Assembly (NCBI GenBank): GCA_964436465.1
Contig: CAYTCV010000006.1
Location: 523-64,522, forward strand
DNA from: an uncultured bacterium
GTDB lineage: Bacteria; RBG-13-66-14
Length of the DNA: 64,000 bases
Direction: 5' to 3'
In this document: piece by piece, positions 4,822 to 59,090 of the stretch
Position numbering within the stretch: the stretch's first letter is position 1
Layout of the letters: each line of letters opens with the position of its first letter
Notes under the pieces: generated by a model
Databases searched by the model: none
What the model saw: only the letters and a program-made list of their open reading frames with translations
What the model was told of the DNA's origin: nothing
Position numbers and translations under genes: made by a program

Positions 4822-4943
4822 TCCCCCTACTCACGGGTGGGGTTGAAACGGGCGGGTGTGGACACCTGCCCCTACGTCATCGCAAATAGGGGCGCGGATT
4901 GACGTGAAAAACGGCGGGGACTGAAGTCCCCGCCCTACATTTA
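4822..4943. repeat. REP-like palindromic repeat cluster (locus 1)
   Basis: Hairpins GGGCGGGTGTGGACACCTGCCC and GGCGGGGACTGAAGTCCCCGCC, flanked by CCCCTACGTCATCGCA and CCCTACATTT. The same modules recur at five other intergenic loci. Confidence 0.6.
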
Positions 4944-5004
4944 TGCAGACGGTAAATACGTGACTGGTTTGACGGCACCTCGGCCCGGAGACGGGCGGCC
5001 CTCT

Positions 5005-5754
5005 TTACCGGCCCAACTCGGCGTCGCGCTCCTGGTTCCAGGTGACCCACTCGTCCAGCTCCAGCTCGTCTTCGGGGGAGAACTCCCCGGAGGCGGCCAC
5101 GGAGCCGTCGGGCGCGATGTAGAGCTGCTGCATCCCGCCGAGGATGACCTGCTTCCACTGGTCCTCGGACACCTCGACCGGCCCGGAGACCTCGTGGGGA
5201 CCTTCGACCTCATACCGCTCACCGGTCCCACCCCCGCCCTCGGTGCCTTCGGTCTCCCAGAACATGGGGCCCTCGATGGCGGCCATGGGATTCCACAACT
5301 CCACGCTGCCTTCGTAAACGCGCAACAGGGTCGAGGTGTCGGGGTAGACGTCCGTGCGGAAGACTGTACCCCGGCACGCCGCCGTGGCGGTAGGCGTCTT
5401 GACGACGTAGTTGCTGGCGGGGTCGGCGAAGGGGGTGACGGTGGACCACAGCCGGCCGCCGGTGGAGGAGACCACCGTGCTGGTGGCCAGCCCGCTGGTG
5501 GACGCCCGCTCGATGGTCAGGTCGGAGTTGGACGAGAGGCGGACGAGGGAGCCGTCGTCGAAGACGATTTCCGTCCGGGAGCGGTCCCCGGTGTGGACGA
5601 TGTCCCCGCCCTTGAGGCGCGAGCCGAGGGAGGCCGTGAAGCTCGACCCGCCGCGGAAGACGCTCACGCTTCCCACCATGTACGTGACCTCCGCCCCGGC
5701 AAGGGCGACGGTGATGAGCATCGCACAGAGGAGCACAAAAACCCGTTTTGTCAT
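5005..5754 (-). CDS. FecR-domain secreted protein
   Basis: Signal peptide MTKRVFVLLCAMLITVALAGA. Motif DGSLVRLSSNSDLTIE...TPTATAACRGTVFRTDV matches the FecR domain pattern. It is the last gene of the envelope operon. Confidence 0.65.
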   Translation of the reverse strand: MTKRVFVLLCAMLITVALAGAEVTYMVGSVSVFRGGSSFTASLGSRLKGGDIVHTGDRSRTEIVFDDGSLVRLSSNSDLTIERASTSGLATSTVVSSTGGRLWSTVTPFADPASNYVVKTPTATAACRGTVFRTDVYPDTSTLLRVYEGSVELWNPMAAIEGPMFWETEGTEGGGGTGERYEVEGPHEVSGPVEVSEDQWKQVILGGMQQLYIAPDGSVAASGEFSPEDELELDEWVTWNQERDAELGR

Positions 5755-5768
5755 CGTTACCCCCGCCG

Positions 5769-6536
5769 TTACAGTTCCTGCACGGCCAGTTGTCCGGGCT
5801 GGAATCCGCCGCCGGATATGGGCTCGGCCAGTGATTCACCCGGTCCCACGCTCTCGATTCTCACGCTGCCGATTCGGTTCCCCCGCTCCCCCCGGACCTC
5901 CGACGGCGCGTAGATGACGAAGATGTCTCCCGGGGCGGCGTTTTCATCGAAGCCGATGGGCAGGATGACCCTGTCCCCCTCCACGTCTATTATGCGACCC
6001 GACCAGGGCGTTTTCTCGAAGTCTGGCGCCAGGTCATCCGCCAGCTTGTCCACGGCTCCCTGGGAGGCTCTTCCTTCCAGGGTGCCCAGGAACTCCGCGT
6101 TGGGTCCGATGACCATGCCGGGGTGCCAGCGGTTCGTGTTGCTCTGGGCGAGGAGCTGCTCGGTCTGGGTCTCGGTGATGAACTCGCCGGTGGGTGCCAG
6201 ATACAGCCGTACTTCCAGACTGACCTCCGCCTCGTCCCGGCGGAAGCCCACTTCACCAAAATTTTCCGAAAGCCCGAAGGTGTGGACATCGCCGATGAGG
6301 TATATCTGGACGCCGAGGTTCCGCAGTTGAGCCGGGAGAGTCAACACCGGTCGAGCCAGGGAGCCCGGTTCCCGGTACTCCGTCCCCAGGGCCACGGTCC
6401 CCCCGAGCGCGACGACCAGGTCCCTCCGGGTGAGCGGTACGATTCCGGGCAGCTCGCCGAGTTTTTGGGCGAGCATCTCCTCCAGGCCGCGGGCCTGCTC
6501 CTCGGTCACCTCGAGCCCGGGCCGCAGGTCGACCAC
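5769..6536 (-). CDS. CsgG-family (curli secretion channel-like) protein, paralog B; true start uncertain and may lie upstream near 6610
   Basis: Similar to the neighbouring CsgG-like gene (LVVALGGTV..., GFDENAAPGDIFVIY). The reading frame stays open upstream of the annotated GTG and encodes ...TIALLSLTGCIFTQTATAPT, a lipobox LTGC, but no canonical start codon precedes it. Confidence 0.5.
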   Translation of the reverse strand: MVDLRPGLEVTEEQARGLEEMLAQKLGELPGIVPLTRRDLVVALGGTVALGTEYREPGSLARPVLTLPAQLRNLGVQIYLIGDVHTFGLSENFGEVGFRRDEAEVSLEVRLYLAPTGEFITETQTEQLLAQSNTNRWHPGMVIGPNAEFLGTLEGRASQGAVDKLADDLAPDFEKTPWSGRIIDVEGDRVILPIGFDENAAPGDIFVIYAPSEVRGERGNRIGSVRIESVGPGESLAEPISGGGFQPGQLAVQEL

Positions 6537-6732
6537 CAGTAGCCGGTCGAGCGTCGGTGCGGTTGCAGTCTGGGTGAAGATGCAGCCCGTCAGGGACAGT
6601 AGCGCGATTGTACCGTAAAATCTTCGCGTAGGTGCGACCCGTGTTACGTCTTTACCGTCGCAGGAATCCGGCCGTAAAGCGGGGCGGGAGGAATACGCCC
6701 GGCCCGCCCCGCCTTCAGTCCAAGGGTCCGGG

Positions 6733-7650: not shown

Positions 7651-7733
7651 GAAACGCCTCCAGGCCTAGTTGAAAAGGTTCAAGGCTTCGCCGTCGCGGA
7701 ACTCGTTCGGTCGGCGCGGCGGGGCCGTCCGTA

Positions 7734-8957: not shown

Positions 8958-9056
8958 CGTAACTCCTCGGCCGTTGGGCGGTGCGTCCGCCCCCAGGTTA
9001 AAATGCTTCGGGGGACGGCCGGGCCGGACGGCTGAGCCGTCCCCCAATGGTAAATC

Positions 9057-10193: not shown

Positions 10194-10219
10194 CGTAATC
10201 CCTTCGTCTGAAAAGTTGC

Positions 10220-11216: not shown

Positions 11217-11291
11217 GCGGGGTTAATTCAGTGGTAGAATGTCAGCTTCCCAAGCTGAACGTCGCCGGTTCGAGCCCGGTACCCCGCTCCA
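11217..11291 (+). tRNA. tRNA-Gly (anticodon CCC)
   Basis: GCGGGGTTAATTCAGTGGTAGAATGTCAGCTTCCCAAGCTGAACGTCGCCGGTTCGAGCCCGGTACCCCGCTCCA. It has a 7-bp acceptor stem, D-arm ATTC/GAAT, anticodon loop TTCCCAA and T-loop TTCGAGC, and carries an encoded CCA. Confidence 0.9.
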
Positions 11292-16102: not shown

Positions 16103-16207
16103 ATGGTTGGTAAAGGTGAGGCTGTTTTGGACAGCGTGCTTGACCGCGCCCTGGAGCTCGAATACCGGCCGGTGGCGCTGTCCCTCTCCGACGAGACGCC
16201 ACTTTGA
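16103..16207 (+). pseudogene. Duplicated 5' fragment of the DUF169 gene (34 codons, then stop)
   Basis: MVGKGEAVLDSVLDRALELEYRPVALSLSDETPL* aligns with MESCLARALGLEYQPVALFRSDEAPRG of the 18035 gene. Nucleotide identity is about 80% over roughly 90 nt, including the upstream AGGTGA. Confidence 0.5.
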
Positions 16208-17973: not shown

Positions 17974-18034
17974 ATTCCGGACAGTGACGACCGAAACTCC
18001 GCTCTCTGCACCCTATCACGCGAAGAGGTGAATT

Positions 18035-18838
18035 ATGGAAAGCTGCCTCGCCCGTGCTCTGGGGCTGGAATACCAGCCGGTGGCGCTCTTCCGTTCCGAC
18101 GAGGCGCCCCGCGGGGCTCGGCCGCCGCGGAAGGGCCAGAGATGCGTGATGAGCTTCCTGGTGGACGCCGCCCGGGGGGAAACCGTTTTTGTAGAAAAAG
18201 ACACCGTGCCCTGCCCGGGCGGGCGCATCGGCCTGGGCTTCGCCGGGGACGTTTCGCACATGCCCGGAGGTGCGGAGAGTTTCTACCGCTTCCTCTCCAC
18301 CGGCAACCGCCCGTACCTGAAGGAACAGGGCCTGTCGGAGAGCGGGATGAGCGAGGATTTCCTCGACGGCGAGCGGTACATCAAGTCGCCCGAGTTGGTG
18401 AGGCGGTTCGTCGAGGGGCTCCCGTCCGTTGAGATAGATAAAAAGTACGTGGTCTTCCGGCCGCTGTCCGCCGTCCAGCCGGGCGACGCCCCCCTCTCCG
18501 TAACCGTCCTGGCCGACCCCGACCAGCTCTCCGCCCTGGTGGTCCTGGCCAATTACGGTCGGGAGACGGCGGACAACGTTGTCATCCCCATGGGCGCCGG
18601 TTGCCACCAAATCGGCATCCACGTCTACCGCGAGGCGGAACGGGAGACGCCGCGGGCCGTCGTCGGCCTGACGGACCTCTCCGCGCGGCTGTGCGTAGAC
18701 CCCCTCATCGGCGACCGCTTCCTCACTTTCTCCGTCCCCTGGCCGATGTTCGGGGAGATGGAGCGAGACGTGCCGGGGAGCTTCCTGGAGCGGACCACCT
18801 GGCGGAGGCTCATGGCCCTGCGGAAAAAGAAGAGATGA
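18035..18838 (+). CDS. DUF169-like protein
   Basis: N-terminus LARALGLEYQPVALFRSDEAPRG and overall size fit the DUF169 family as I recall it. Its stop overlaps the ATG of the next gene (ATGA). Confidence 0.5.
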   Translation: MESCLARALGLEYQPVALFRSDEAPRGARPPRKGQRCVMSFLVDAARGETVFVEKDTVPCPGGRIGLGFAGDVSHMPGGAESFYRFLSTGNRPYLKEQGLSESGMSEDFLDGERYIKSPELVRRFVEGLPSVEIDKKYVVFRPLSAVQPGDAPLSVTVLADPDQLSALVVLANYGRETADNVVIPMGAGCHQIGIHVYREAERETPRAVVGLTDLSARLCVDPLIGDRFLTFSVPWPMFGEMERDVPGSFLERTTWRRLMALRKKKR

Positions 18839-20542: not shown

Positions 20543-20617
20543 CGTAGGGGCGGGTGTCCACACCCGCCCGTTTTAATAAGGAAAAGGCGGCACACGGAGT
20601 TGCCGCACTACGTCCGG
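20543..20617. repeat. REP doublet unit, copy 1 (75 nt)
   Basis: CGTAGGGGCGGGTGTCCACACCCGCCCGTTTTAATAAGGAAAAGGCGGCACACGGAGTTGCCGCACTACGTCCGG; two hairpins flanked by GTAG...CTAC. Confidence 0.65.
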
Positions 20618-20739
20618 AACTTGTCGTAGGGCGGGGAACCGAGCGAAGCGAACTATGCGAAGCAAATCCTTTCCCCGCCGCTTTAACGTTCCAAACCTCA
20701 ACCCTCACCCCAACCCGTCGGCGCGCCGCTCACTAAAAG

Positions 20740-20790
20740 GGAAAGGGGGACCGGGCCGACCCGAACGGCGCGCCATCGGTCGGCCCCTAC
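20740..20790. repeat. REP-like hairpin module (GGGCCGACC...GGTCGGCCC) between the two direct repeats
   Basis: GGGCCGACCCGAACGGCGCGCCATCGGTCGGCCCCTACGAGG; the same module is found at 37719-37751 and 41822-41855. Confidence 0.55.
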
Positions 20791-20819: not shown

Positions 20820-20894
20820 CGTAGGGGCGGGTGTCCACACCCGCCCGTTTTAATAAGGAAAAGGCGGCACACGGAGTTGCCGCCCTACGTCCGG
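20820..20894. repeat. REP doublet unit, copy 2 (75 nt, 1 mismatch to copy 1)
   Basis: Direct repeat of 20543-20617 with a single A/C difference. The apparent ORFs 20554-20736 and 20831-21031 share an N-terminus only because they start inside the repeat. Confidence 0.65.
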
Positions 20895-20930: not shown

Positions 20931-22262
20931 TCAGATGTACCCCCGCTGCCGGAGCACGTCCTCCAGCGTCGGCCGCCCGAGCTCCTGCAGCTCGTAGGTT
21001 ACCCGCGTCGAGGGGCAGTCGATGTCGATGAGCCGCTTGAGGTTGATGGGCGTCCCGACGACCACGGAGTCCACGGCCTTGTCCTTCACCATCGCCCGGA
21101 TTGTGGCCTCCAGGTCCTTGACCTGGGCCGAGCCGTAGCCCATCGCGGGCAGCAGGACGCCGATTCCGGGGTACTTGGCGAAGGTATCCGCGATACTCTT
21201 CACGGCCCACGGCCGCGGGTCTATCAGCTCCGCCGCGCCGAACCTCTCCGCCGCCGCCGTTCCGGCCCCGAACTTCATCCCCCCGTGGGTCAGCGTCGGG
21301 CCGTCCTCGATGACCAGCACCCGCCTGCCGGTGATGACCGCCGGGTCGTCCACGAAGATGGGGCTGGCCGCCTCGACCACCACCGCGGTCGGGTTCGTGG
21401 CCCGGATGTTCTCCCGCAGCAGGGCCAGCTTCTCCGGCGGCACGGCCCCCAGCTTGTTGATGACGATGACGTCGGCCAGGCGCAGGTTCGTCTCGCCGGG
21501 GTAATACGAAAGCTCGTTCCCCGCCCGGAAGGGGTCGGTAACCACCACGGTCAGGTCGGCCCGGTAGAACGAGGTGTCGTTGTTGCCGCCGTCCCAGAGG
21601 ATGATGTCGGCCTCCTTCTCCGCCTCGCGCAGAATCGCCTCGTAATCCACGCCGGCGTAGATGAGGTTACCCGCGGCGATGTGCGGCTCGTACTCCTCCA
21701 TCTCCTCGATGGTGCAGTCGTGCTCCTCCAGGTCGCTCATCTCGGCGTAGCGCTGCACCTTTTGTTTCGCCAGGTCGCCGTAGGGCATGGGGTGGCGGAT
21801 GGCGACGACTTTCTTTCCGGCGGCCTGGAGCAGGTCGATGATGCGGCGGCTGGTCTGGCTCTTGCCGCACCCGGTCCGCACCGCGCAGACGGCGATGACC
21901 GGTTTCGTGCTCTCCAGCGTCACCGCCGGACCGCCCAGCAGCATGAAGCTCGCGCCGGCGGCGTTGACCAGGCTCGCCCGGTGCATGACGTAGTCGTACG
22001 GAACGTCCGAGTAGGCGAAGACGACGAAGTCCACACCGAGGTCTTTTATCAGGCGGGGCAGCGCCTCCTCCTCGTGGATGGGGATGCCTTCGGGGTAGAG
22101 CTCGCCCGAGAGCTCGGGCGGGTAACTGCGGCCGCCGATGTCGGGAATCTGGGTGGCGGTGAAGGCCACGACCTCGTAGGCGGGGTTCTTGCGGAAGAAG
22201 GTGTTGAAGTTGTGAAAGTCGCGCCCCGCGGCCCCCATGATGATGACCTTTTTCCTGTCCAT
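20931..22262 (-). CDS. Cyclic 2,3-diphosphoglycerate synthetase-like P-loop protein
   Basis: N-terminus MDRKKVIIMGAAGRDFHNFNTFFRKNPAYEVVAFTA matches my recollection of archaeal cDPG synthetase. A central Walker A (VRTGCGKSQT) is present. Assignment is from memory, with no search run. Confidence 0.5.
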   Translation of the reverse strand: MDRKKVIIMGAAGRDFHNFNTFFRKNPAYEVVAFTATQIPDIGGRSYPPELSGELYPEGIPIHEEEALPRLIKDLGVDFVVFAYSDVPYDYVMHRASLVNAAGASFMLLGGPAVTLESTKPVIAVCAVRTGCGKSQTSRRIIDLLQAAGKKVVAIRHPMPYGDLAKQKVQRYAEMSDLEEHDCTIEEMEEYEPHIAAGNLIYAGVDYEAILREAEKEADIILWDGGNNDTSFYRADLTVVVTDPFRAGNELSYYPGETNLRLADVIVINKLGAVPPEKLALLRENIRATNPTAVVVEAASPIFVDDPAVITGRRVLVIEDGPTLTHGGMKFGAGTAAAERFGAAELIDPRPWAVKSIADTFAKYPGIGVLLPAMGYGSAQVKDLEATIRAMVKDKAVDSVVVGTPINLKRLIDIDCPSTRVTYELQELGRPTLEDVLRQRGYI

Positions 22263-22500
22263 GCTTTGCTCCGTAAAGATGTAGGTCCGATGGACCCGAT
22301 GTTCGGCTGGGTGTGGGATGGAAATTCGGAGGTTATTCGGGGGGCTCGGAATCGGAAACGCGGGCGGCGAGGCGCAGCCGGCGGGCCCGGGCGCCGTGGG
22401 GGGTCAGGGCGTTGTGGTGGAAGACGCGGTACACGGGTGACTCCGGTAAAAATGACACCCCATGTTTACCACGGGGTGCCGGCAAAGTCAACCGAACCGC

Positions 22501-22800
22501 TCAGCATTTAGGCAACGCGCCCAGGTTATCGCTTTCGGTGTAGTCGGCGTCCGTGCGCAGGTAGCGCACACCCATGACCGTCACGATGTTGACCCGCGCC
22601 CCCTTCCTCCATTGTCCGTCTCCACCTTTGGTTATCGTGCAGAAGGAGTAACGGTTATCCATCCTATCGAGAATCCAACTACGGCTACGCATGGACCTGG
22701 AACCTAATTTTTCCCCCAGGTCCTCGTGTACTCCGGCCTCTTCGATGTGATTGTCTTTGTAACCGCAGCACGATATTAAATAATCCGCCCACTTCGCCAT
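22501..22800 (-). CDS. DUF3892-like small protein (low-GC islet)
   Basis: MAKWADYLISCCGYKDNHIEEAGVHE...ARVNIVTVMGVRYLRTDADYTESDNLGALPK. The YLRT...DNL..LP pattern is typical of DUF3892. GC here is about 52%, against about 67% in the flanks. Confidence 0.5.
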   Translation of the reverse strand: MAKWADYLISCCGYKDNHIEEAGVHEDLGEKLGSRSMRSRSWILDRMDNRYSFCTITKGGDGQWRKGARVNIVTVMGVRYLRTDADYTESDNLGALPKC

Positions 22801-22885
22801 TTCTCCTCCCCGGCTGTGAAAAACACGCAGGTTATTCACTATTCTATAGACCCAATCTCCCGGGTCAACAGACTGAAGTCATCAA

Positions 22886-29848: not shown

Positions 29849-30577
29849 TCACATACTCCACACGGTCAACAGGGTGAACAGGAAGAGGCCGAAGTAGATT
29901 ATCGCGCCGAAGAGCGCCACCCGCGGATGCTTGCGGGCCAGGGTCAGGGCGTCGTAGAGCGGGTTGAACGCCGCGCCGAAGCGGTATACCTCGAAGGCCG
30001 CCTTCTTGAGCCCCGCGTAAACCACCTTGCCCCGCTCCATGTCCCCGGCCTCCAGAGCGGCCTTCATCTCGGCCAGGGTCTCCTTGAGCTTGCCCTTCAC
30101 CGTTTCGGTCTTCTTGGCCGGCCGGGCGTCGCGCTTCTGGGCCTCGTCCAGGTGCCGCCGCAATTCTTCGAGATATTCCCCCTTCACCCGCGGCGTTAAA
30201 AGCTCGTCCATCAGTACGCGGGCCTGCACGTCCTCCAGGAGGTCCGCCACGGTCAGGCGCGTCAGCGGGACCTTGTACTCCCGCCGGCAGGAATCGATGA
30301 GCTCCTCGACCACCTCGTAGCTCAGCGGCGCCCCGGCGATGAGCATCTCCGCCACCAGCTTGGCCGCGTGGCCGCCGGCCTTCTCCTCGGCCATCTCGTT
30401 GCGCATCTTCACCAGCCGCCCGAGGATGAACCAGGTCACCAGGACGAAGACCAGGATGACGCCCACGGTGACGATGAGGCGGACGAAGGGGTCCATGCCC
30501 GCCGCCTGCGCCCCGGGGGCCGGCAGGGCGGAGGAAGCGCCCGCCGCGCAGATTATCGCCAGAAAGAGCTTGCGCAC
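29849..30577 (-). CDS. Membrane protein, hypothetical (signal peptide plus TM helices, coiled-coil middle)
   Basis: MRKLFLAIICAAGASSALPA, then a TM helix, a charged helical region and a C-terminal TM helix. Confidence 0.5.
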   Translation of the reverse strand: MRKLFLAIICAAGASSALPAPGAQAAGMDPFVRLIVTVGVILVFVLVTWFILGRLVKMRNEMAEEKAGGHAAKLVAEMLIAGAPLSYEVVEELIDSCRREYKVPLTRLTVADLLEDVQARVLMDELLTPRVKGEYLEELRRHLDEAQKRDARPAKKTETVKGKLKETLAEMKAALEAGDMERGKVVYAGLKKAAFEVYRFGAAFNPLYDALTLARKHPRVALFGAIIYFGLFLFTLLTVWSM

Positions 30578-30610
30578 CTTTGACCTCCCGTGAGGGGGTG
30601 GGGCTTCCGT

Positions 30611-31714: not shown

Positions 31715-31842
31715 AGGGAAAAACCTCGCCGCTCCCTCGATTGATGGTCCATTGTACCGCAAAGGGGCGGGCTAATCCAACACGACGAACGGGAGGGTCG
31801 GGTGACCCTCCCGCATCACATCAACAATCCGCCGCGGATACC

Positions 31843-33378
31843 CTACTTAATCGGAATCGGGAACGGATACGCCGGGGCGGGGCGGTGGGGCATGACGCAG
31901 GCCGGCGCCGAGGCCGTCCCGCCCTGGAACGGCTCCAGGAGGTAATCGGCGAAGGTGAAGGGCGTCAGCGACTTGGGGTCGGAGTATTTCTGCGCCAGGT
32001 CGCAGGCGAAATCCCCGGCCACGCCGACGTCGAAGGCGACCAGCATCAGCTCCTCCACCCTGGGCAGCCCCCAGGCGAAGAGGTCGCCCTCCAGGGTCAC
32101 GCTTTGGCCGGGCGCCAGTTGAGCGGGCAGTTTGACCCCCGTTTTCGTTACTATGGGTTTACCCTCGCCGCGGAAGACCCAGCAGCGCAGGCCCTTGGCG
32201 GTGTCCAGGGACCGCGGCTCCGCGGCGTGGTTGGTGATATTCACCTTGACCTGGTACGACGCGTCGAAGGGGATGGCGAAGGCCGGGTCGGGAAGCACCA
32301 GTTCCACCCCGCCCACCGGGCCGGTGCGGTAGGGGTACGGCAGCGGGTCCGGCTTGGGGTAATTCGCGAAATCGCCGAAGGCCTTCTTCTCCTCGGGGGT
32401 GTACTTCGCGTCCACGTGCCATCCGGCGCGCAGAAGCGCGGTCAGGCCGAGGTAGTCCGGTCCCTGCTCCTTGGCGATGTGCTCCTGGCCGAATTCCATC
32501 CGCCGGCGCACGTAGGGCCGGTAGAAGGCCTCGTCCATCTCCCAGCCGTTGAACTCCTTCGAGTAACCCAGCAGGACGTGGATTTTCTGTCGCTGCTCCT
32601 CGGTGTGCATGTGGGGCCACAGGAGGTACTCGCCCAGGGCGTCGGTGAAGCAGGTGAAGGGCAACAGGGCGTTCTGGCGCCGGGCCAGCGTCAGCTCGTT
32701 CTCCAGGGAATTTTTGTTCAGGGCGTAGACCACGTTCGTCGGGAAGGGGTAGTCCCGGGTGATTTCCAGGGCGTTCAGGGCCCAGGTAATCATGTCGGGC
32801 TGGTGGTGGGTGATTTCGACGTTGAAGGAATTCAGGTTGGCGTCCCAGGTGGCCGCCTGGCCCAGATGGTCCTGATACCCCTCGGCGAGACTTCTCCGGT
32901 TGAACTCGGGGATGGTTTTGCACTCCTCGGCCAGGGCGAAGAACGCCTCGTAGGCCTGCTTCTGATGGGGAAGCTGGTCGTTGTCCCTGACCCCGGTGTT
33001 GTAGGCCATGCGGTGCGGCTTGAGAACGATTTCCAGGTCGGTGATGTCCAGCGTCTTCAAGTCGACCGGCTTTAAATCCTTCTCCGCCTGCTCCATCTCG
33101 GCGATTTTGGAGTCCATGCCGGCTTCCTGGACCTCGGAAATCTTGACCATGGCCTGGCCGTACTTCTCCATGAGCCCCTCGGACTGCATCCGGTCCTGGA
33201 ACTTGATGATGTCCATCCCCGGCTCGTTGCCGATGGCCTCCATGCGGGCGATGACCTCGCGCACCGGCTCCAGCAGGCTCTTGTCGGAAATCATGGACGA
33301 CTGGGCGTCCAGGCCCATCTTCATCCCGTCCACCATCTGTTTGACCGCCGCGTCCATCAGTACCTCCCCCCGAGACAC
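31843..33378 (-). CDS. Hypothetical protein, 511 aa (helical N-terminal half, beta-rich C-terminal half)
   Basis: No recognised motif. Overlaps the upstream gene by 22 nt. Confidence 0.55.
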   Translation of the reverse strand: MSRGEVLMDAAVKQMVDGMKMGLDAQSSMISDKSLLEPVREVIARMEAIGNEPGMDIIKFQDRMQSEGLMEKYGQAMVKISEVQEAGMDSKIAEMEQAEKDLKPVDLKTLDITDLEIVLKPHRMAYNTGVRDNDQLPHQKQAYEAFFALAEECKTIPEFNRRSLAEGYQDHLGQAATWDANLNSFNVEITHHQPDMITWALNALEITRDYPFPTNVVYALNKNSLENELTLARRQNALLPFTCFTDALGEYLLWPHMHTEEQRQKIHVLLGYSKEFNGWEMDEAFYRPYVRRRMEFGQEHIAKEQGPDYLGLTALLRAGWHVDAKYTPEEKKAFGDFANYPKPDPLPYPYRTGPVGGVELVLPDPAFAIPFDASYQVKVNITNHAAEPRSLDTAKGLRCWVFRGEGKPIVTKTGVKLPAQLAPGQSVTLEGDLFAWGLPRVEELMLVAFDVGVAGDFACDLAQKYSDPKSLTPFTFADYLLEPFQGGTASAPACVMPHRPAPAYPFPIPIK

Positions 33379-34007
33379 TCGGCGTTGACCCGCTCGAATA
33401 TCTCCACCAGCCGCTTTATCTGCGCGTCGTCGAAGGTGAAGCGTTCGCGAATCCAGGGGAGCTGCATCAGGTCGGGGAAGCGTTTTCCGGGGTTGCGCTC
33501 GGCGAGCTCCTTCAGCCCGGCCTCCAGCTTGGTCTGGACGCTCTCGGAGAGCTCGGAGCCCGGCTTGGCGGCGCTGATATAGAACACGTTCTCCACGCTT
33601 TCGTCCATCAGGGTTTTCGTGCGGCTGACTTTTTCCAACAGCTTCGACTCGTCCGCGGCGAACTTGGTGGCGATGGAGTCGATTTCGTTGAAATCCGCGG
33701 CTTTGGAGATGGCCTCGGCCTTGGCGTTCCCGCTTCCGGCCAGCTCTACCAGCTTCAGCTCGGCGTAGATTTCCGCCTGGAAGCGGGCGCCGTCCACCGC
33801 CATGGCCCGGCCGAGCCGGAAGGAAAATCCGCCCTCCATGAACTGCCGGTTCATCTCGAGGAGGTCCGGCGTTTTCTTGACCATCTCCAGGGTTTCGGCG
33901 TCCGCCTTCACTGCCTCTCTTGCGTGGGGGTCCTTCTTGCGGGCCTCCAGCGTCAGGCGGTAATACTCGATGGTGTCGGCGTGCGCCTGAGCGTCGAAAC
34001 CGGCCAT
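33357..34007 (-). CDS. Hypothetical helical protein, 216 aa
   Basis: Ala/Glu/Lys-rich predicted alpha-helical cytoplasmic protein, downstream of the XpaC-like pair. Confidence 0.5.
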   Translation of the reverse strand: MAGFDAQAHADTIEYYRLTLEARKKDPHAREAVKADAETLEMVKKTPDLLEMNRQFMEGGFSFRLGRAMAVDGARFQAEIYAELKLVELAGSGNAKAEAISKAADFNEIDSIATKFAADESKLLEKVSRTKTLMDESVENVFYISAAKPGSELSESVQTKLEAGLKELAERNPGKRFPDLMQLPWIRERFTFDDAQIKRLVEIFERVNAECLGGRY

Positions 34008-34008
34008 A

Positions 34009-34254
34009 TCAACGGCCCTCGCTGATGGCGGTGTTCATCTCGGCCAGGGCGGCGGCATACTCGTTGTTCAGGTTCGTCTGCTGCATCTGGGTGTTGAAAG
34101 CCGCCATCGTGGCGCCGTGCTCCTGGGCCACGGCGTTGACCTTCGCCATCACGGCGCGGGCCTTTTCGAGGGGAGCCTTGTCCTTCAGGCGGTTGCCCTG
34201 GGCCTCGATGCTCATCTGCCAGGCGTCCACCATCGCTTTTACCTGCGGGTCCAT
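34009..34254 (-). CDS. Small hypothetical protein, 81 aa
   Basis: MDPQVKAMVDAWQMSIEAQGN...; tightly packed, with a 2-nt gap to the downstream gene. Confidence 0.4.
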   Translation of the reverse strand: MDPQVKAMVDAWQMSIEAQGNRLKDKAPLEKARAVMAKVNAVAQEHGATMAAFNTQMQQTNLNNEYAAALAEMNTAISEGR

Positions 34255-34279
34255 GAGTCTCCTTTCGAATTATCCGATA

Positions 34280-35041
34280 CTAAAGCTCTTCCCGGTCGAA
34301 CTCCTCCTGGGTCGCGGTCAGGCACTTGCTCCAGTCGCGCAGGTCGTCCACCAGGGAGGTGATGGGGGAGAAATCCACCTGTGTTCCGGACCCCGCGGTT
34401 CCGAACTCCTGCGCCACCTCGCTCTCCAGCTCGAAGGCCTCCAGGCGGTTCGAGGCCTCGGCCAGACGCCCCACCAGCCCGGCGAAGTCGTTGGTGCGTT
34501 CGACCAGGTTGGTTATAAGACGCCAGGCCTTTTCCACCAGGGGCTTCGAGTCGATGTCCCGGGCCCGCTCGTAGAACTGGTACACCTTGTCCTGGCGCAG
34601 CCACTCGCCGGCCAGGGCCAGGGCGCCGGAGTAAACTTCCTCCACCAGTGGCTTGAGCTCCGCCGGCTTCGTGTCTATTTCCTTGAAGCGCCGGACGACC
34701 GTTTCGTAGCCCGTGGCGATGGCTTTGAACCGAGGACCCTCGGCATTTCTGCCGATTCTTTCGTTGAAGGCCTTCCACCGCTGTTGGACTTCCCCATAGA
34801 GCATATCCACCGCCAGGATGCGGTCCGACGTAACCTTCGCGAAAACGATGAGCACGGCGATTATCGCGGCGCCGACCGTCCCCACGGCGACCCACAAGCT
34901 TTCCAGAAAGATGAAACCCATGTAACCGATGAAGAGAGCCATGGGGAGGAGGGACAGCGGTGCGGTCAGCTTTTTGCGCTTCTCCTCGTCCCGGTACAGC
35001 CGATGCCGGATGACCTTGCGCAGTCGGGCGGTGTTACTCAA
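34280..35041 (-). CDS. XpaC-like membrane protein, paralog B
   Basis: About 30 aa N-terminal region, two TM helices (LSLLPMALFIGYMGFIFLESLWVAVGTVGAAIIAVLIVFA), then a helical domain with LAGEWLRQDKVYQFYERARDIDSKPL. About 45% identical to the upstream paralog. Confidence 0.6.
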   Translation of the reverse strand: MSNTARLRKVIRHRLYRDEEKRKKLTAPLSLLPMALFIGYMGFIFLESLWVAVGTVGAAIIAVLIVFAKVTSDRILAVDMLYGEVQQRWKAFNERIGRNAEGPRFKAIATGYETVVRRFKEIDTKPAELKPLVEEVYSGALALAGEWLRQDKVYQFYERARDIDSKPLVEKAWRLITNLVERTNDFAGLVGRLAEASNRLEAFELESEVAQEFGTAGSGTQVDFSPITSLVDDLRDWSKCLTATQEEFDREEL

Positions 35042-35087
35042 GGCCTTGCTCTCCTGTGTGTTGCCTGCCGTCCGAGCGTGGAATCTG

Positions 35088-35852
35088 CTACAGGGCCTCG
35101 CGGTCCAGCTCCTCCTGAGCCCGGTTCAGGCAGGTGCCCCATTCGCGCAGGTCCCCGACCAGGGCGTCCAGTTGCGCGAAATCGGGCGCGGGAGTCTCTC
35201 CGGAATCACCGAGCTCCCCGGGCATCTCGCTGCTGAGCTCGAAGACCTGCACGCGGTTCACGGTGTCGTCGAGGCGTTCCAGCAGCCCGGCGAAACCGTT
35301 CGTGCGGTCGATGAGGTCGTCTATGAGCCGTCGGGCCTTGTCCTTCAGGGGCTGGGAGTTTATGTCACGGGCCCGCTCGTAGAACTTATACACCTTGTCC
35401 TGGCGCAGCCATTCACCGGCCAGCCGGACGCCGCAGTCGTAAACCTCGTCCACCGCCGACAGGAGCCCGGCGGGCCCCCCGCCGACCTCCTTCAGCCGGC
35501 CCGCCACCTTGGCGATGCCGTCGGAGATGTCCTTCAGACGCACGCCTTCGGGTTTCGTGCCCACCCTCTTATTGAACTCCTCCCAGCGCTCGCGGGCCTC
35601 GTCGTAGAGGTAGCCCGCGACGAGGGACCGGTCCCCGTAAATGAGCCTGTGGTTTATCAACAGGGCGATGACCCAGGCGGCGGCCACTCCCACGGCGGGC
35701 CAGACGGTCTCCAAAAAGAGGGCGGTCATATACCCGACGACGATGACCACGGGTATAATGCTTAATATGCCGATTGACCGCTTGCGCCTTTCCGGGTCCT
35801 GCGCTAAGCGGCGCCTCACTACACGGCGCAGGTTGGCGGTCAGTACGGCCAA
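35088..35852 (-). CDS. XpaC-like membrane protein, paralog A
   Basis: Same architecture; LAGEWLRQDKVYKFYERARDINSQPL is conserved. Confidence 0.6.
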   Translation of the reverse strand: MAVLTANLRRVVRRRLAQDPERRKRSIGILSIIPVVIVVGYMTALFLETVWPAVGVAAAWVIALLINHRLIYGDRSLVAGYLYDEARERWEEFNKRVGTKPEGVRLKDISDGIAKVAGRLKEVGGGPAGLLSAVDEVYDCGVRLAGEWLRQDKVYKFYERARDINSQPLKDKARRLIDDLIDRTNGFAGLLERLDDTVNRVQVFELSSEMPGELGDSGETPAPDFAQLDALVGDLREWGTCLNRAQEELDREAL

Positions 35853-35866
35853 GCGACTCCGTCCTC

Positions 35867-37540
35867 CTAGAACAGACCCGTGATGTTGCCGTCCAGGTCG
35901 ATGTCCATGTGCACGGCCGCCGGGTCCTTCGGCAGGCCCGGCATGCGCATGATGTCCCCGGTGAGCGGGACGACGAATCCGGCCCCCGCGGCGACTTGAA
36001 TCTCCCGCACCGTCACCACGAAGTCCTTGGGACGCCCCAGGAGCTTCGGGTTGTCCGAGAGTGAGTTCTGCGTCTTGGCGACGCAGACCGGCAGCCCGGC
36101 GTAGCCGAAGTTCTCGATGGCCTTCAGGTCGCGCTTGGCCCTGGACGTGTAGTCCACGTGCTCCGCGCCGTAGATTTCGTGGGCCACGGTGTAGATTTTC
36201 TTCTCGACGGGCCAGTTCCAGTCGTAGAGCGGCTTGAAATCACTCGTGCAATCCCGGGCGTTCTGCCGGACCAATTCGGCCAGCTCGCGCATCCCGTCGC
36301 CGCCCCTGGCGAAGCCCTCACCCACGGCGGCGGGGACCCCCAACTCCCGGCAGCGGTCCAGGACGACTTTCAGTTCCTCGTCGGTATCGGAGAAGAAACG
36401 GTTTACGCAGACCACGGCCGGCAGCCCGAACTTGGCGATGTTCTCCAGGTGCTTCTCCATGTTGGGCAGCCCGGCCGCGACGGCGTCGGGATTCGGTTCA
36501 ACCAGGTCCTTCTTCTTCACCCCGCCGTGCATCTTCAGCGCCCGGCAGGTGGCCACCAGAACCACCAGGCTGGGGCAGAATTTTCCCGAAACGCACTTGA
36601 TGTCGAAGAACTTCTCCGCGCCGAGGTCGAAACCGAAGCCGGCCTCGGTGACGGCGAAATCGCTGAAGGCCAGGGCCATGCGGGTGGCCAGGACCGAATT
36701 GCACCCGTGGGCGATGTTGGCGAAGGGGCCGCCGTGGATGAAGGCGGGAACGCCCTCGAGAGTCTGCACCAGGTTGGGTCGGATGGCGTGCTTCAGCAGC
36801 ATCGCCATGGCGCCGGCCACGCCGATTTCCCCGGCCAGCACCGGCCTGCCGTCGTAGGTCATTCCTAAAAGGATGCTTCCCAGGCGGCGCTTCAGGTCCT
36901 CGAAATCCTCCGCCAGGCAGAGGATGGCCATGACCTCGCTGGCGGCGGTGATGTCGAATCCGGATTCCCGCGGCACGCCCTGCGTCCGGCCGCCGAGGCC
37001 GATGACGATGTCCCGCAGCTCGCGGTCGTTCATGTCCACCACGCGGCGGTAGGCCACGGTGCGGGGGTCCAGTCCGCTCTCGTCGCCCCGGAAGATGTGG
37101 TTGTCCAGGGCCGCGGCCAGGAGATTGTGCGCCGAGGTGATGGCGTGGATGTCGCCGGTGAAGTGGAGGTTGATGTCCTCCATGGGGATGACCTGGGAGT
37201 ACCCGCCGCCGGCGGCGCCGCCCTTCACGCCGAAGATGGGCCCCAGGGAGGGCTCGCGCAGGGCGCAGGCCGCTTTCTCACCCAGCTTGGCCAGCCCCTG
37301 CACCAGGCCGATGGTCACCGTGGTCTTGCCCTCCCCCGCCGGGGTGGGGGTGATGGCGGAGACCAGGACGAGCTTGCCGGTTTCGCCTCGGAAGCCGCGG
37401 AGGGCGTGGTTGTGGACCTTGGCCTTGTCCCGGCCGTAGAGGTCGAGGTCGTCGGGTCCGAGGCCCAGCCCGGCCGCGACTTCGACTATGGGCCGCGGCT
37501 TCGCCGACTGGGCGATTTCTATATCGGGCGGGAAGGGCAT
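35867..37540 (-). CDS. fhs: Formate--tetrahydrofolate ligase
   Basis: MPFPPDIEIAQSAKPRPI...VSAITPTPAGEGKTTVTIGL...; the internal ATG at 37540 is used. Confidence 0.95.
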   Translation of the reverse strand: MPFPPDIEIAQSAKPRPIVEVAAGLGLGPDDLDLYGRDKAKVHNHALRGFRGETGKLVLVSAITPTPAGEGKTTVTIGLVQGLAKLGEKAACALREPSLGPIFGVKGGAAGGGYSQVIPMEDINLHFTGDIHAITSAHNLLAAALDNHIFRGDESGLDPRTVAYRRVVDMNDRELRDIVIGLGGRTQGVPRESGFDITAASEVMAILCLAEDFEDLKRRLGSILLGMTYDGRPVLAGEIGVAGAMAMLLKHAIRPNLVQTLEGVPAFIHGGPFANIAHGCNSVLATRMALAFSDFAVTEAGFGFDLGAEKFFDIKCVSGKFCPSLVVLVATCRALKMHGGVKKKDLVEPNPDAVAAGLPNMEKHLENIAKFGLPAVVCVNRFFSDTDEELKVVLDRCRELGVPAAVGEGFARGGDGMRELAELVRQNARDCTSDFKPLYDWNWPVEKKIYTVAHEIYGAEHVDYTSRAKRDLKAIENFGYAGLPVCVAKTQNSLSDNPKLLGRPKDFVVTVREIQVAAGAGFVVPLTGDIMRMPGLPKDPAAVHMDIDLDGNITGLF

Positions 37541-37714
37541 GGGACACCTGTATCCAAGACGAGAGTGATTGACCGATACGTTCGTAATCATGGTACAGAT
37601 TCGTGTAAAAAAACAAGGGCGCTCTCCGGGACCGGCTGAGGGCCATGCCGTTTCAACGGCACGGAGGGGGGAGGCTCCCCGCTGCAATTTGGGCATTCAC
37701 TCTGTTTAGCGCCG

Positions 37715-37925
37715 CCTCGGGCCGACCTGAACGGCGCGCCGTCGGTCGGCCTCTTAGGCCCTCGTTGACCGTCGTCGTTTGAAAAAACGTAGGGGCGGGT
37801 GTCCACACCCGCCCGCGATTCAATCCCACCGCCGTGCCCAAAATGTAGGGCGGGGATTTTAACCCCCGCCGTTTTATAAGGCAGCCCTCACCCTCGGTCC
37901 CTCTGCCACGGGGAGAGGGAAACTG
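37715..37925. repeat. REP-like repeat cluster (locus 4, at least four hairpin modules)
   Basis: GGGCCGACCTGAACGGCGCGCCGTCGGTCGGCC; GTAGGGGCGGGTGTCCACACCCGCCC; GTAGGGCGGGGATTTTAACCCCCGCC; CCCTCTGCCACGGGGAGAGGG. Confidence 0.6.
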
Positions 37926-37952
37926 TCGCCCATCAGGTAAGCCCGGTGAGCC

Positions 37953-38432
37953 CTAAAAACGCAGCGCCAGGTTCAGCGTGGGGTAACATTCACCGTTGCT
38001 CGCGACGCCCAGGCCCGGGTAGAGGTCGAGGGAGACGGACTGATGCTCGTTCTTCCACTCGGCCAGGAGCGGGGCGTGTACCAGGCCGCCCAGGTACGCG
38101 GCTCCGGCGAGGCAGCTCCCGATGACCGTCTCGCCGATGCCGGACATAAATCCGGTCATGTTCGACCCGACTATTACAAGCGTAATCCCGCCACCCACGA
38201 GGCCGATTTCCACCACGCCCCAGACCGGCTCCTCGATGAGGAAGTAGCCCAGGCCGGGGACGAGGTTGCCGAAGAGCCCCGCCTCCCATGAGTACTCGGC
38301 GGGAGCCGGCGTTTCCACCGTATCGCCGTAACCTTCGGGGACCGGCACCGGGTCGGCGTGTGCGACGACGAGAAGGAGTAGCGTCAGCAGCGCGTTTAAC
38401 CGCATCATCCGGTGCATCCCCCTTCGATTCAA
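37953..38432 (-). CDS. Secreted/membrane hypothetical protein
   Basis: Signal peptide MMRLNALLTLLLLVVAHA, then a Gly-rich hydrophobic segment. Confidence 0.45.
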   Translation of the reverse strand: MNRRGMHRMMRLNALLTLLLLVVAHADPVPVPEGYGDTVETPAPAEYSWEAGLFGNLVPGLGYFLIEEPVWGVVEIGLVGGGITLVIVGSNMTGFMSGIGETVIGSCLAGAAYLGGLVHAPLLAEWKNEHQSVSLDLYPGLGVASNGECYPTLNLALRF

Positions 38433-41769: not shown

Positions 41770-41915
41770 TTTCCCCTCTCCCTGTGGGAGAGGGGTCAGG
41801 GGTGTGGGCTACCTTTAAAATCGGGCCGACCTGAACGGCGCGCCGTCGGTCGGCCCCTACATCATCGCAATAGTGGTGTAAAACGGCGGGAAAATGATTT
41901 CCCGCCCTGCATTTA
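41770..41915. repeat. REP-like repeat cluster (locus 5)
   Basis: CCCCTCTCCCTGTGGGAGAGGGG; GGGCCGACCTGAACGGCGCGCCGTCGGTCGGCCCCTACATCATCGCA; GGCGGGAAAATGATTTCCCGCCCTGCATTT. Confidence 0.55.
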
Positions 41916-41938
41916 CCGCAACGGTACGGCCCGAATCC

Positions 41939-42262
41939 CTACGGCGACGGCTGGGGGTTCATGGAGATGCGGCCGTGCAGGTCGTCGGGAGCCAGGAGGA
42001 CCAGGATAACCTTGCCGTCCCGGCTCAGGTTGGCCGTGGTCAGCGTCACCTCGGTGTAGTCGAACCGGGGCAGCAACTTCTGGATGGTCTCCAGCTGGGC
42101 CGTGGTGAACTCGACGACCGCGCCCCGCCCCTTGGCGTTGTTGACCGCGTTGAGCTGGGCGTTGGTTAGCGTGAGGGTGACCTCGTACCGCCGGTCCTCG
42201 GCCCATGAAACGGCCACGAGGACGAACAGCAGCGCCACGATTAAGAATTTCGCGACTTTCAT
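41939..42262 (-). CDS. Small secreted protein, paralog 1 (107 aa)
   Basis: Signal peptide MKVAKFLIVALLFVLVAVSWA; 45% identical to the gene at 42437-42763; C-terminus ...NPQPSP. Confidence 0.6.
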   Translation of the reverse strand: MKVAKFLIVALLFVLVAVSWAEDRRYEVTLTLTNAQLNAVNNAKGRGAVVEFTTAQLETIQKLLPRFDYTEVTLTTANLSRDGKVILVLLAPDDLHGRISMNPQPSP

Positions 42263-53323: not shown

Positions 53324-53339
53324 AAAACAAGGAGACCCC

Positions 53340-57366: not shown

Positions 57367-57367
57367 A

Positions 57368-58030
57368 ATGCTCGAGACCTGGCAGAAGAAAGCGGTTTTC
57401 CGGCGCGCGTTCCTGGGCGCGTCGCGGCTGACACTCCTGGTCGTCCTGTTGGGGGCGGCGCTCATCTGCAACCTCGTCCTCGCCTGGTTCTGGCCTTCCG
57501 TCGGCCTCCTCGCCGTCGCCGTGCTCGGCTATATCGTCTGGTCCGCCACGGTCACCGGGCGCCCGGTCCACATCGCGCGCTCCATCCTGCGCGAGTTGTC
57601 CGGTTTCAGCGGCCTGTCGCACAAGTTCAAATCCCGCCTGGCCGCCATCGAGCGGGTGTTCGCCAACTTCTGGGACAAGACGGACGCCCTGGACGAGGAC
57701 GTCATCGGAGAAACCCGGCGGGAGGCGCTGCGGGCCCTCATTGCTCTGTCTTCACGGCTGCGGGCCGTGGGGCTCGCCGATAGGGTCAACCGCGACGCCC
57801 GGCGCATGGGGAAGTCGAGCGACCGGGCCGAGGAGATGGTCGCCGGCGCCGTGGACGAGGTGGACCAGTTCGTAGAGATGCTGAACCAGACCGCCGTCAC
57901 CGCCGCCGAGGTCCTGCTCGCCGGCCGCGAGGAGGCGACGGACCGAATGAAACGGGCGGCCGAGGAGCTGGCCCTGTGGCAGAAATCACTCGCCGAGGCC
58001 CAGGCCGAGCTCGACGAGTCGGGATTTTAG
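57368..58030 (+). CDS. Membrane hypothetical protein (two TM helices plus coiled coil)
   Basis: The ATG lies 2 nt after the upstream stop; no family recognised. Confidence 0.45.
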   Translation: MLETWQKKAVFRRAFLGASRLTLLVVLLGAALICNLVLAWFWPSVGLLAVAVLGYIVWSATVTGRPVHIARSILRELSGFSGLSHKFKSRLAAIERVFANFWDKTDALDEDVIGETRREALRALIALSSRLRAVGLADRVNRDARRMGKSSDRAEEMVAGAVDEVDQFVEMLNQTAVTAAEVLLAGREEATDRMKRAAEELALWQKSLAEAQAELDESGF

Positions 58031-58053
58031 CCGGCCAGTCGTCAGGAGGAATC

Positions 58054-58788
58054 ATGAACGCAAGAGGCGCGGCCATCGTGACCGGAGGGGCGAGGGGAAT
58101 CGGGGCCGCCGTGGCCCGGGCGCTGGCGCGGGAGTTCCCCGTCGCCGTGTGGGACCTGGACGCCCCGGGGGCCGAGGGTACCGCCGGGGAAATCACCGTC
58201 GGAGGCGGTAAGGCGAAGGCCTGGGGCGTGGATATTAGCGACTTCGACGCCGTCCAGGCCGCGGCCGAGGAGGTTACGAAGGCCTTCGGCGCCGTCGAGG
58301 TTTTGGTAAACAACGCCGGCGTAACCCGCGACGGCCTGTTCATGCGCATGCGGCCCGAGGACTGGGACCTGGTGTTGAAGGTTAATCTCACCGGGGCGTT
58401 CAACTGCTGCAAGGCGGTGACACGCCCGATGCAGAAGGCGCGCAAGGGCCGCATAGTAAACGTCACGAGCGTGGTCGGCCTCACCGGCAACGTGGGGCAG
58501 GCCAACTACGCCGCCAGCAAGTCGGGGCTCCTGGGGCTGACCAAGAGTCTGGCCAAGGAGCTGGGCGGGCGCGGGGTCACCGTCAACGCCGTGGCGCCGG
58601 GGTTCATCGAGACCGAGATGACCGCCGGCCTGCCCGAAGAAGTGAAAAAGGCGTTCCTGGCCGCCGTTCCCCTGGGCCGGGCCGGGACGCCCGAGGACGT
58701 GGCCGGGGTCATCGCATTCCTCTGCTCCCCCGCGGCGGATTACATCACCGGCCAGGTCATCAACATCGACGGCGGGATGGTCATGTAG
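58054..58788 (+). CDS. fabG: 3-oxoacyl-ACP reductase (SDR)
   Basis: AIVTGGARGIG...NNAG...; YAASK catalytic motif; IDGGMVM C-terminus. Confidence 0.85.
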   Translation: MNARGAAIVTGGARGIGAAVARALAREFPVAVWDLDAPGAEGTAGEITVGGGKAKAWGVDISDFDAVQAAAEEVTKAFGAVEVLVNNAGVTRDGLFMRMRPEDWDLVLKVNLTGAFNCCKAVTRPMQKARKGRIVNVTSVVGLTGNVGQANYAASKSGLLGLTKSLAKELGGRGVTVNAVAPGFIETEMTAGLPEEVKKAFLAAVPLGRAGTPEDVAGVIAFLCSPAADYITGQVINIDGGMVM

Positions 58789-58819
58789 GGCGGTTGCACC
58801 GGCGTGAAGACGGCTGCAT

Positions 58820-59090
58820 GTCCCCTCTCCCTTCCAGGGAGAGGGTTAGGGTGAGGGTCGGGGTGTAGAATGCAAGAGGCGGCGGGGATAGGAATCCCCG
58901 CCCTACATTTAGAATCGCACGACAACCTCGTAGGGGCGGCCCTCTGTGGCCGCCCGCGGGCGGGTCAGGAGACACGCCCCTACGTCATCGCAGAGAATGA
59001 AGCGGCGGGGATAGGTATCTGCGACCGAAGGTAATCCCCGCCCTACATTTGGCGTGAATCGCGTATAAACCTCGTAGGGGTACGCCCATA
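58820..59090. repeat. REP-like repeat cluster (locus 6, at least five hairpin modules, BIME-like)
   Basis: CCCCTCTCCCTTCCAGGGAGAGGG; GGCGGGGATAGGAATCCCCGCCCTACATTT; CGTAGGGGCGGCCCTCTGTGGCCGCC; CGCCCCTACGTCATCGCA; GGCGGGGATAGGT...AATCCCCGCCCTACATTT; CTCGTAGGGGTACGCCC. Confidence 0.6.

Follow-up and report, generated by a model that had tools for sequence, protein, structure and literature searches.

The 64,000-nucleotide stretch of DNA from an uncultured bacterium that we analysed (contig CAYTCV010000006.1; hereafter the window) carries short G+C-rich hairpins with GTAG or CTAC at their ends between its genes, and the question arises what kind of element they represent. The first-pass annotation had taken them for a family similar to repetitive extragenic palindromes (REPs) and bacterial interspersed mosaic elements (BIMEs), of the type mobilised by REP-associated tyrosine transposases (RAYTs), and had described five modules, a to e, at six loci. 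We consider it very probable that five intergenic loci, numbered here 1 to 5 along the window (Table 1), are BIME-like clusters of GTAG-tagged REPs linked to a RAYT. The core of the earlier proposal was supported by the unpaired GTAG/CTAC heads, the G+C-rich stems, the mixed orientation of units within clusters and the linkers between them. All five modules were found at these five loci where they had been placed, whereas the sixth, a supposed degenerate copy at 22440–22480, matched no module and resembled none of the copies in 0.5 Mb of related DNA. That region contains a unique 11-bp hairpin followed by UUUUU (22445–22478, minus strand), located between a 112-aa open reading frame (ORF; 22501–22839, minus strand) and the start of the 443-aa gene at 20931–22262 (minus strand); it is an ordinary terminator-like site, unrelated to the repeat family.

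The design of the unit is the same in all a, a', b and c modules: an unpaired GTAG(GG) head is followed at once by a G+C-rich hairpin of 7–10 bp. In 14 of 14 canonical units, all of them within the five loci, the stem begins at the base right after GTAG; with about five more units that have a mutated head or stem, the window contains 14–19 units in its 64 kb. The loops are 2–8 nt long, and 32 and 21 nt in the long-loop variants of module b. When the modules were folded as DNA, GTAG stayed unpaired in every one of them (−9 to −15 kcal/mol, z −3 to −5).

Several types of hairpin coexist, namely a, a', b (with short and long loops), c and one more. Module a is a 26-nt sequence, GTAGGGGCGGGTGTCCACACCCGCCC, with exact copies at 20544, 20821 and 37789, a reverse-complemented copy with one mismatch at 4850 and a degenerate one, with four mismatches, at 58958. 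The tail of module b, TCCCCGCCCTACATTT, is located at 4927, 58895 and 59035, at 37841 on the minus strand and, with two mismatches, at 41899, and module c was found at 20753, 37719 and 41823. Module e (4869, 58977 and, with one mismatch, 41854) had been listed as a further hairpin, but it is actually the REP end CCCCTAC plus a linker, GTCATCGCA, which on the GTAG strand reads as TGCGATGAC followed by GTAGGGG. Linkers of this kind join the units in a type-specific manner: TGCGATGAC precedes GTAGGGG, AAAT precedes GTAGGGC and AACCTC precedes GTAGGGG. The units occur singly or in clusters of mixed orientation, and at locus 2 their order is + − + − + −. The a/a' doublet has a T/A-rich spacer, is terminator-like in both directions and folds as two separate hairpins. 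Another doublet, at 58930–58983, has 28-nt arms with 71% complementarity; replication of such a doublet was not observed.

The abundance of these motifs was above chance. GTAGGGSSSG occurs 13 times in the window compared with 2.69 ± 1.58 in 100 shuffles (the largest value was 7), and 11 of the 13 sites are inside the loci, which represent 1.7% of the window. In addition, we collected all maximal hairpins with at least eight perfect outer pairs and compared their 4-nt leaders with those from 40 dinucleotide shuffles. The commonest leader was GTAG, found 10 times (runner-up, 6; shuffle mean for GTAG, 0.25, maximum 2), and all 10 of these strong hairpins are inside the five loci. We also considered whether such hairpins could come from a degenerate CRISPR array or belong to a gene for a structured non-coding RNA, as module a with its flank weakly matches the Rfam family CRISPR-DR29 (20.6 bits, E 0.09). 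This score is, however, far under the 39-bit gathering threshold; Rfam thresholds were passed by only a tRNA in the window, and no CRISPR-DR29 match was obtained at locus 5. The repeats also lie on both strands, with irregular spacing and several repeat sequences, and their copies are spread over more than 60 contigs of the sister genomes described below, among the matches listed. Spacing and orientation refute a CRISPR array, and the probability of this explanation as a whole, including the RNA-gene version, is negligible. An Rfam run on loci 2 and 5 in E-value mode gave sub-threshold matches to CRISPR-DR29 and Atu_L6 (15 bits), which we regard as noise.

Relatives of the window were obtained as stretches of GTDB genomes matched by the exact 26-mer of module a (L-numbers below are labels of these stretches). 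More than 85 stretches contained the 26-mer among the matches listed, and these included at least 41 from the metagenome-assembled genome (MAG) CAZNZF01 ('uncultured bacterium SRP214966_co4_317'), at least 21 from Candidatus Coatesbacteria RBG_13_66_14 (MFAF01) and at least four from Candidatus Coatesbacteria CSMAG_1439. By megablast, the window was 93–94% identical to CAZNZF01, in which L073 is the ortholog of 29849–38011, and 88% identical to MFAF01 (L022). From this identity of 88–94% it follows that the window belongs to the Candidatus Coatesbacteria clade. All modules of the window recur in the sister MAGs, where 395 kb contained 72 copies of a, 58 of the b core, 33 of e, 11 of c and nine of a'. 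Counted over 459 kb with the window included, there were 311 GTAG-hairpin units in 118 clusters of one to nine units, with 76 head-to-tail (HT), 54 HH (heads outside) and 52 TT dimers. The specificity of the linkers was also seen in the clade: AAT stood before GTAGGGC 41 times and before GTAGGGG twice, GCGATGAC favoured GTAGGGG by 37 to 13 and CCTC favoured it by 15 to 1. Many copies are located where contigs end, which is to be expected if repeats interrupt the assembly, and a Logan contig from SRR9700623 (1.26 kb, 99.7% identical, with a match to the PAP2 protein) ends inside module a. The repeats explain break points in the assemblies of these MAGs, and they should be masked when small ORFs or non-coding RNAs are called.

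The link to a transposase comes from the closest genomes. A scan for HUH and tyrosine motifs and tblastn with 20 RAYTs found no RAYT gene in the window, as had been noted before, and among the window and 85 pattern-matched loci the motif scan and tblastn located a RAYT in L037 only. This predicted gene, on a CAZNZF01 stretch (227–685, minus strand), encodes a 153-aa protein with the motifs HVHLL and YILANP. It scored 102.7 bits with the NCBIfam model REP_Tyr_transpos (cut-off 80), against 17.2 bits with the IS200 model, and it also matched Pfam Y1_Tnp. A profile built from 20 homologs had its best PDB match in 4ER8, the E. coli TnpA-REP (E 1.4e-17), while the match to the IS200/IS605 transposase ISDra2 TnpA was weaker (about 2e-9). 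The residues H71, H73, Y129, N133 and P134 were invariant in the 20 RAYT sequences. The L037 gene is bracketed by inverted module-b REPs, GTAGGGCGGGG...CCCCGCC at one flank and GGCGGGG...CCCCGCCCTAC at the opposite one, and a RAYT between two inverted module-b REPs is the classic 'REPtron' arrangement (PMC2817692, PMC3733652). One of the flanking REPs is the long-loop variant, the same as that at 20626–20679 in the window, whose loop, CCGAGCGAAGCGA(A/G)CTATGC, flanks the RAYT gene in both L037 and L087.

Similarly, a homolog in L089 (P0001, 81% identical) has GTAGGGCGGGGATTCCTATCCCCGCC upstream and GGCGGGGTTAGGAAACCCCGCCCTAC downstream, followed by module a and GTCATCG. Another homolog, P0004 (140 aa; L087, 3001–3423, also in L088), has a module-b REP at the point where it breaks off, just before the catalytic tyrosine motif, and is probably an inactivated RAYT copy. 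In the search for RAYT homologs most clusters were single-member, and the search gives no copy number per genome. When metagenomes were scanned with the RAYT alignment, 80 loci with 30–47% identity were found and 79 were examined. A GTAG hairpin was present upstream in 53 of the 79, a hairpin followed by CTAC downstream in 45, and both in 35. The heads beside these genes were nearly all GTAGGG, and the stems changed between lineages by paired differences. These 79 loci outline a broad RAYT clade whose REPs share the GTAGGG head while their stems co-vary.

All clusters had been described as intergenic, and the five loci do lie inside gaps of a gene map based on G+C content at third codon positions. 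Two of these gaps are tandem and three convergent. In the clade, by crude gene calls, clusters were present in 14 of the 36 convergent gaps, in 26 of the 169 tandem gaps and in 4 of the 35 divergent gaps, and 8 of 117 clusters were inside called ORFs. One position required correction: locus 3, said to come after fhs, is upstream of this gene, which runs from 37696 to 35867 on the minus strand. With such locations, the hairpins could be non-mobile stem-loops of an ordinary kind, acting as Rho-independent terminators or stabilising mRNA, that resemble each other by convergent selection in a G+C-rich genome. The loci come after gene ends, the a/a' doublet and several b units consist of a G+C stem followed by GTTTT, and at least five T among the 8 nt that follow the stem were found in the GTAG direction in 67 of 311 units (22%), compared with 13 of 311 in the opposite direction. 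The remaining 78% of the units, however, have no T tract, and units face both ways within one gap, as at locus 2. Termination requires neither the unpaired head nor the 9-nt linkers, yet both are conserved, identical 26-mers occur dozens of times per genome, and the same hairpins bracket a RAYT gene. In addition, the true lone terminator-like hairpin of the window, at 22445–22478, looks quite different. Termination or mRNA stabilisation as the whole explanation is thus very improbable. A role of this kind for some of the units, as suggested earlier, can still be inferred; the terminator pattern, as predicted from sequence, is present at 4913–4938 and 41885–41910 (both minus strand) and in the a/a' doublets.

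We also considered whether the hairpins could be sub-parts of a larger composite mobile element of about 70–120 nt, similar to a MITE (a miniature transposable element with inverted repeats) or a REPIN, made up either of module d (the triplex motif discussed below), an A-rich spacer and a REP, or of a REP, linker e and a module-b REP. Several observations fit such an element. The 78-nt a/a' doublet is duplicated 277 nt apart with 97% identity, and the arrangement hairpin–CCCTAC–(G/A)TCATCGCA–...–module b–CCCTAC–ATTT recurs at loci 1, 4 and 5; the median gap of HH dimers is 2 nt, and the triplex motif is followed within 80 nt by a hairpin with CTAC in 42 cases and by the opposite orientation in three, with the conserved spacer CTNCCTTATAAAAAC. 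On the other hand, 41 of the 118 clusters are single units and the composition is highly variable, one linker joins different hairpin types, and at locus 1 the order is b–a in MFAF01 and a–b in the window. We find a fixed composite very improbable, and it would in any case refine the REP/RAYT explanation rather than replace it.

Module d had been included among the REP hairpins. Judging from its three blocks, it is a TM/PIT (BoxC-like) intrastrand-triplex motif (Holder et al. 2015, PMC4666352), a separate repeat that shares the clusters, and the idea that it is a headless REP was rejected on the basis of that literature. As in the published motif, the order is CCCTCTCCC–loop–GGGAGAGGG–3 nt–GGGTGAGGG, and the blocks of the canonical copy at 58822–58856 are those of TM copies from E. 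coli in the table of PMC4666352. The copy at 41773–41807 has GGGGTGTGGG as its third block, and those at 37886–37920 (the degenerate module d itself at 37898–37920) and 20703–20746 are degenerate. Among the TM motifs of the clade (loci L003–L086 and the window), 45 of 60 had a REP at most 80 nt downstream of the GGGTGAGGG block, and 42 of these REPs were oriented as hairpin–CTAC and three in the opposite way. The median gap between TM and REP was 19 nt, with the conserved A-rich spacer. A REP within 80 nt upstream was found for only 17 of 60 motifs. The clade motif thus differs from published TM/PIT in being physically coupled to REPs with fixed polarity, and of the four copies in the window two are degenerate; neither the TM paper (PMC4666352) nor the survey of GTAG-REPs (PMC3733652) mentions a link between TM and REP.

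Another observation concerns module a, whose exact 26-mer occurs, often in several copies, in MAGs whose labels span at least three phyla. In Oscillospiraceae MAGs there were 11 copies in 49 kb, together with a GTAGGGG-REP repertoire of their own, and modules b and c were absent from these module-a loci. The 26-mer was also found in two Flavonifractor MAGs (Oscillospiraceae/Flavonifractor, L013–L078) and in five Acidobacteriota MAGs (L002, L039, L045, L051 and L056), as well as in L055 and L082. In the Oscillospiraceae and Acidobacteriota stretches, which were pattern-matched stretches only, no RAYT was detected by motif scan and tblastn. The stem GGGCGGGT/ACCCGCCC recurs beside RAYTs that are only 35–39% identical. 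Viral contigs, searched as a transfer vehicle, gave no matches to the 26-mer. Sequence constraint, transfer or binning error are possible reasons for this distribution. A joint proposal may be put forward for both observations, in which the TM motif would be carried along or targeted by the RAYT/REP machinery and the shared 26-mer would reflect either cross-phylum transfer of REP and RAYT or a tight constraint on the hairpin; we regard it as tentative and rather unlikely. If true, co-mobilisation would be the first hint of how the enigmatic TM/PIT motif spreads, and cross-phylum transfer or constraint would conflict with the common view that REPs are specific to a lineage and inherited vertically.

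Returning to the clusters as RAYT-linked REPs, we compared orthologous loci for signs of turnover. Locus 3 and L073 are collinear and about 95% identical, the same as their flanking genes. Both sides show decay: in the window the CTAC head of module c has been lost and the TM stem has a mismatch, and in L073 GTTG replaces GTAG in module b. At locus 1, as mentioned, the order of a and b differs between the window and MFAF01. These comparisons indicate that the clusters are long-lived and decaying, and that rearrangement comes with greater divergence; neither locus 1 nor locus 3 showed a fresh insertion.

By analogy with E. coli TnpA-REP (PMC3479197, PMC8266576), the RAYT, an HUH/Y1 enzyme, would recognise the units as hairpins in single-stranded DNA by reading the GTAG head. 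Cleavage and rejoining next to this head, as proposed from the E. coli work, could allow the units to spread and rearrange. Hairpins inserted after genes would be transcribed into 3' untranslated regions, where the approximately one fifth of units with a T tract could stop transcription or protect the upstream mRNA, and single copies would decay at roughly the local neutral rate.

Some points weigh against this explanation. Both the RAYT of the window genome and its genome-wide number of REPs, which in GTAG-tagged families typically exceeds 100, are deduced from relatives that are 88–94% identical, and the densities in the clade are biased upward because loci were selected for containing module a. 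Transposition was not observed as an event, and the sole orthologous cluster that could be aligned, locus 3 with L073, has kept its place. Only module b flanks the RAYT, so that the shared GTAGGG head is the basis for assuming that it also acts on a, a' and c. Finally, the commonest dimers here are head-to-tail, which are absent or rare in most genomes of the survey and set the family apart from most published GTAG families (PMC3733652).

The repeats are of a known bacterial kind, and what is new is their occurrence in a little-studied candidate phylum, Coatesbacteria, outside the coverage of the published survey. The GTAG-REP superfamily comprises 24 GTAG families, including the REP/BIME of E. 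coli, the REPs of Pseudomonas and the SMAGs of Stenotrophomonas (Di Nocera et al. 2013, PMC3733652). As in our clusters, its members have an unpaired GTAG, a G+C-rich stem of 6–13 bp and a short or sometimes long structured loop, several families occur per genome, and the units are single, in dimers or in clusters in tandem and convergent gaps (PMC3733652). The host is different, since the Coatesbacteria clade is absent from the phyla listed in the survey (Proteobacteria, Cyanobacteria, Chloroflexi, PVC; PMC3733652), and here the head is extended to GTAGGG and each hairpin type has its own, strongly conserved linkers. The GTAG-REP/RAYT system is thereby extended to this clade.

E. coli BIMEs are likewise mosaic clusters with at least two REP types and defined linkers, and their RAYT is bracketed by inverted REPs (Nunvar 2010, PMC2817692; PMC3479197; Corneloup 2021, PMC8266576). 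The RAYT of the clade resembles E. coli TnpA-REP in its HUH and Y-x-x-x-N-P motifs as well as in the match to 4ER8 (Messing 2012, PMC3479197), but the relationship is distant, being a profile match only with no close identity. The REP sequences themselves are unrelated to those of E. coli except for the GTAG head. The Pseudomonas REPIN–RAYT system also has inverted REP doublets with a short spacer, like those at 58930–58983 and in a/a', and an associated RAYT (Bertels and Rainey 2011, PMC3116915). In contrast to REPINs, the a and a' arms are not mutually complementary, so most doublets here would fold as two small hairpins, and many units are single or tandem.

Table 1. Parts of the five repeat clusters in the window and the genes beside them.
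Locus	Feature	Coordinates	Strand	Remarks
1	Neighbouring genes			AI-2E transporter gene (−) and FecR-domain gene 5005–5754 (−), by Pfam; tandem gap
1	REP type a, one mismatch (GTAGGGGCAGGTGTCCACACCCGCCC)	4850–4875	−	linker TGCGATGAC before it on its own strand (4876–4884, module e)
1	REP type b (GTAGGGCGGGGACTTCAGTCCCCGCC)	4913–4938	−	AAAT 5' flank; followed by GTTTTTCAC, terminator-like; 67 nt past the FecR-gene stop
2	Neighbouring genes			PAP2 gene (+) and 443-aa gene 20931–22262 (−), by Pfam; convergent gap
2	HH (heads outside) doublet	20544–20611		a 20544–20569 (+), 16-nt T/A-rich spacer, a' 20586–20611 (−) with mutated head GTAGTG
2	REP type b, long loop	20626–20679	+	GGCGGGGAA...32 nt...TTCCCCGCC
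2	TM/PIT triplex motif, degenerate	20703–20746	−	variant with CGGCGCGCCGACGGG insert ahead of GGGGTGAGGG
2	REP type c (GTAGGGGCCGACCGATGGCGCGCCGTTCGGGTCGGCCC)	20753–20790	−	9-bp outer stem, inner GGCGCGCC palindrome
2	Second a/a' HH doublet, 97% identical	20821–20888		a 20821–20846 (+), a' 20863–20888 (−) with intact GTAGGG head
3	Neighbouring genes			fhs 35867–37696 (−) and 159-aa gene 37953–38432 (−); tandem gap, with fhs downstream of it and the 159-aa gene upstream
3	REP type c, CTAC head lost	37719–37756	−	3-nt deletion; L073 ortholog keeps GGCCCCTACGTAGG
3	REP type a, exact	37789–37814	+	
3	REP type b with AAAT 5' flank (AAATGTAGGGCGGGGATTTTAACCCCCGCC)	37841–37870	+	followed by GTTTTATAAGG
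3	TM/PIT triplex motif, one stem mismatch	37886–37920	−	CCCTCTCCCCGTGGCAGAGGGACCGAGGGTGAGGG on the minus strand; degenerate
4	Neighbouring genes			outer membrane protein (OMP) beta-barrel gene (+) and 107-aa gene 41939–42262 (−), by Pfam; convergent gap
4	TM/PIT-like motif (CCCCTCTCCCTGTGGGAGAGGGGTCAGGGGTGTGGG)	41773–41807	+	27 nt past the OMP-gene stop; third block GGGGTGTGGG
4	REP type c with linker e variant	41823–41869	−	REP 41823–41860; linker ATCATCGCA 41861–41869
4	REP type b variant, mutated head (GCAGGGCGGGAAATCATTTTCCCGCC)	41885–41914	−	AAAT flank; about 25 nt past the 107-aa-gene stop; followed by GTTTTACAC
5	Neighbouring genes			fabG-like short-chain dehydrogenase/reductase (SDR) gene (+) and LigT-like gene 59093–59680 (−), by Pfam; convergent gap
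5	TM/PIT triplex motif, canonical (CCCCTCTCCCTTCCAGGGAGAGGGTTAGGGTGAGGGT)	58822–58856	+	
5	REP type b with ATTT flank	58881–58910	−	REP 58881–58906
5	REPIN-like HH doublet, 2-nt gap	58930–58983		GTAGGGGCGGCCCTCTGTGGCCGCCC (+) and degenerate type a GTAGGGGCGTGTCTCCTGACCCGCCC (−)
5	Linker e and REP type b, long loop	58984–59050	−	linker GTCATCGCA 58984–58992; REP 59004–59046; ATTT flank
5	Truncated REP head (GTAGGGGTACGCCC)	59074–59087	+	after linker AACCTC; abuts the LigT-like-gene stop

Two genes of the window end within a GTAGGG motif. The TAG stop of the fabG-like gene (58786–58788) is inside such a motif (GTCATGTAGGGCGG, 58785–58794), and so is that of the 107-aa gene (CCGTAGGGATTC on the minus strand, 41932–41943). 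REP heads may therefore supply the stop codons of both genes; the TAG of the head is sometimes a stop codon in the GTAG-REP superfamily as well (PMC3733652).

Additionally, we noticed a few similarities and features elsewhere in the window. Stretches with 71–74% identity are shared by the minus-strand neighbours 34280–35041 and 35088–35852 (window 34280–35183), and also by 33357–34007 and its neighbour on the minus strand (window 33301–34258), which suggests that these neighbouring gene pairs are tandem paralogs. The segments 16125–16200 and 18033–18108 are 78% identical. The tRNA gene that gave the sole Rfam match of the window at the gathering threshold is located at 11217–11288.

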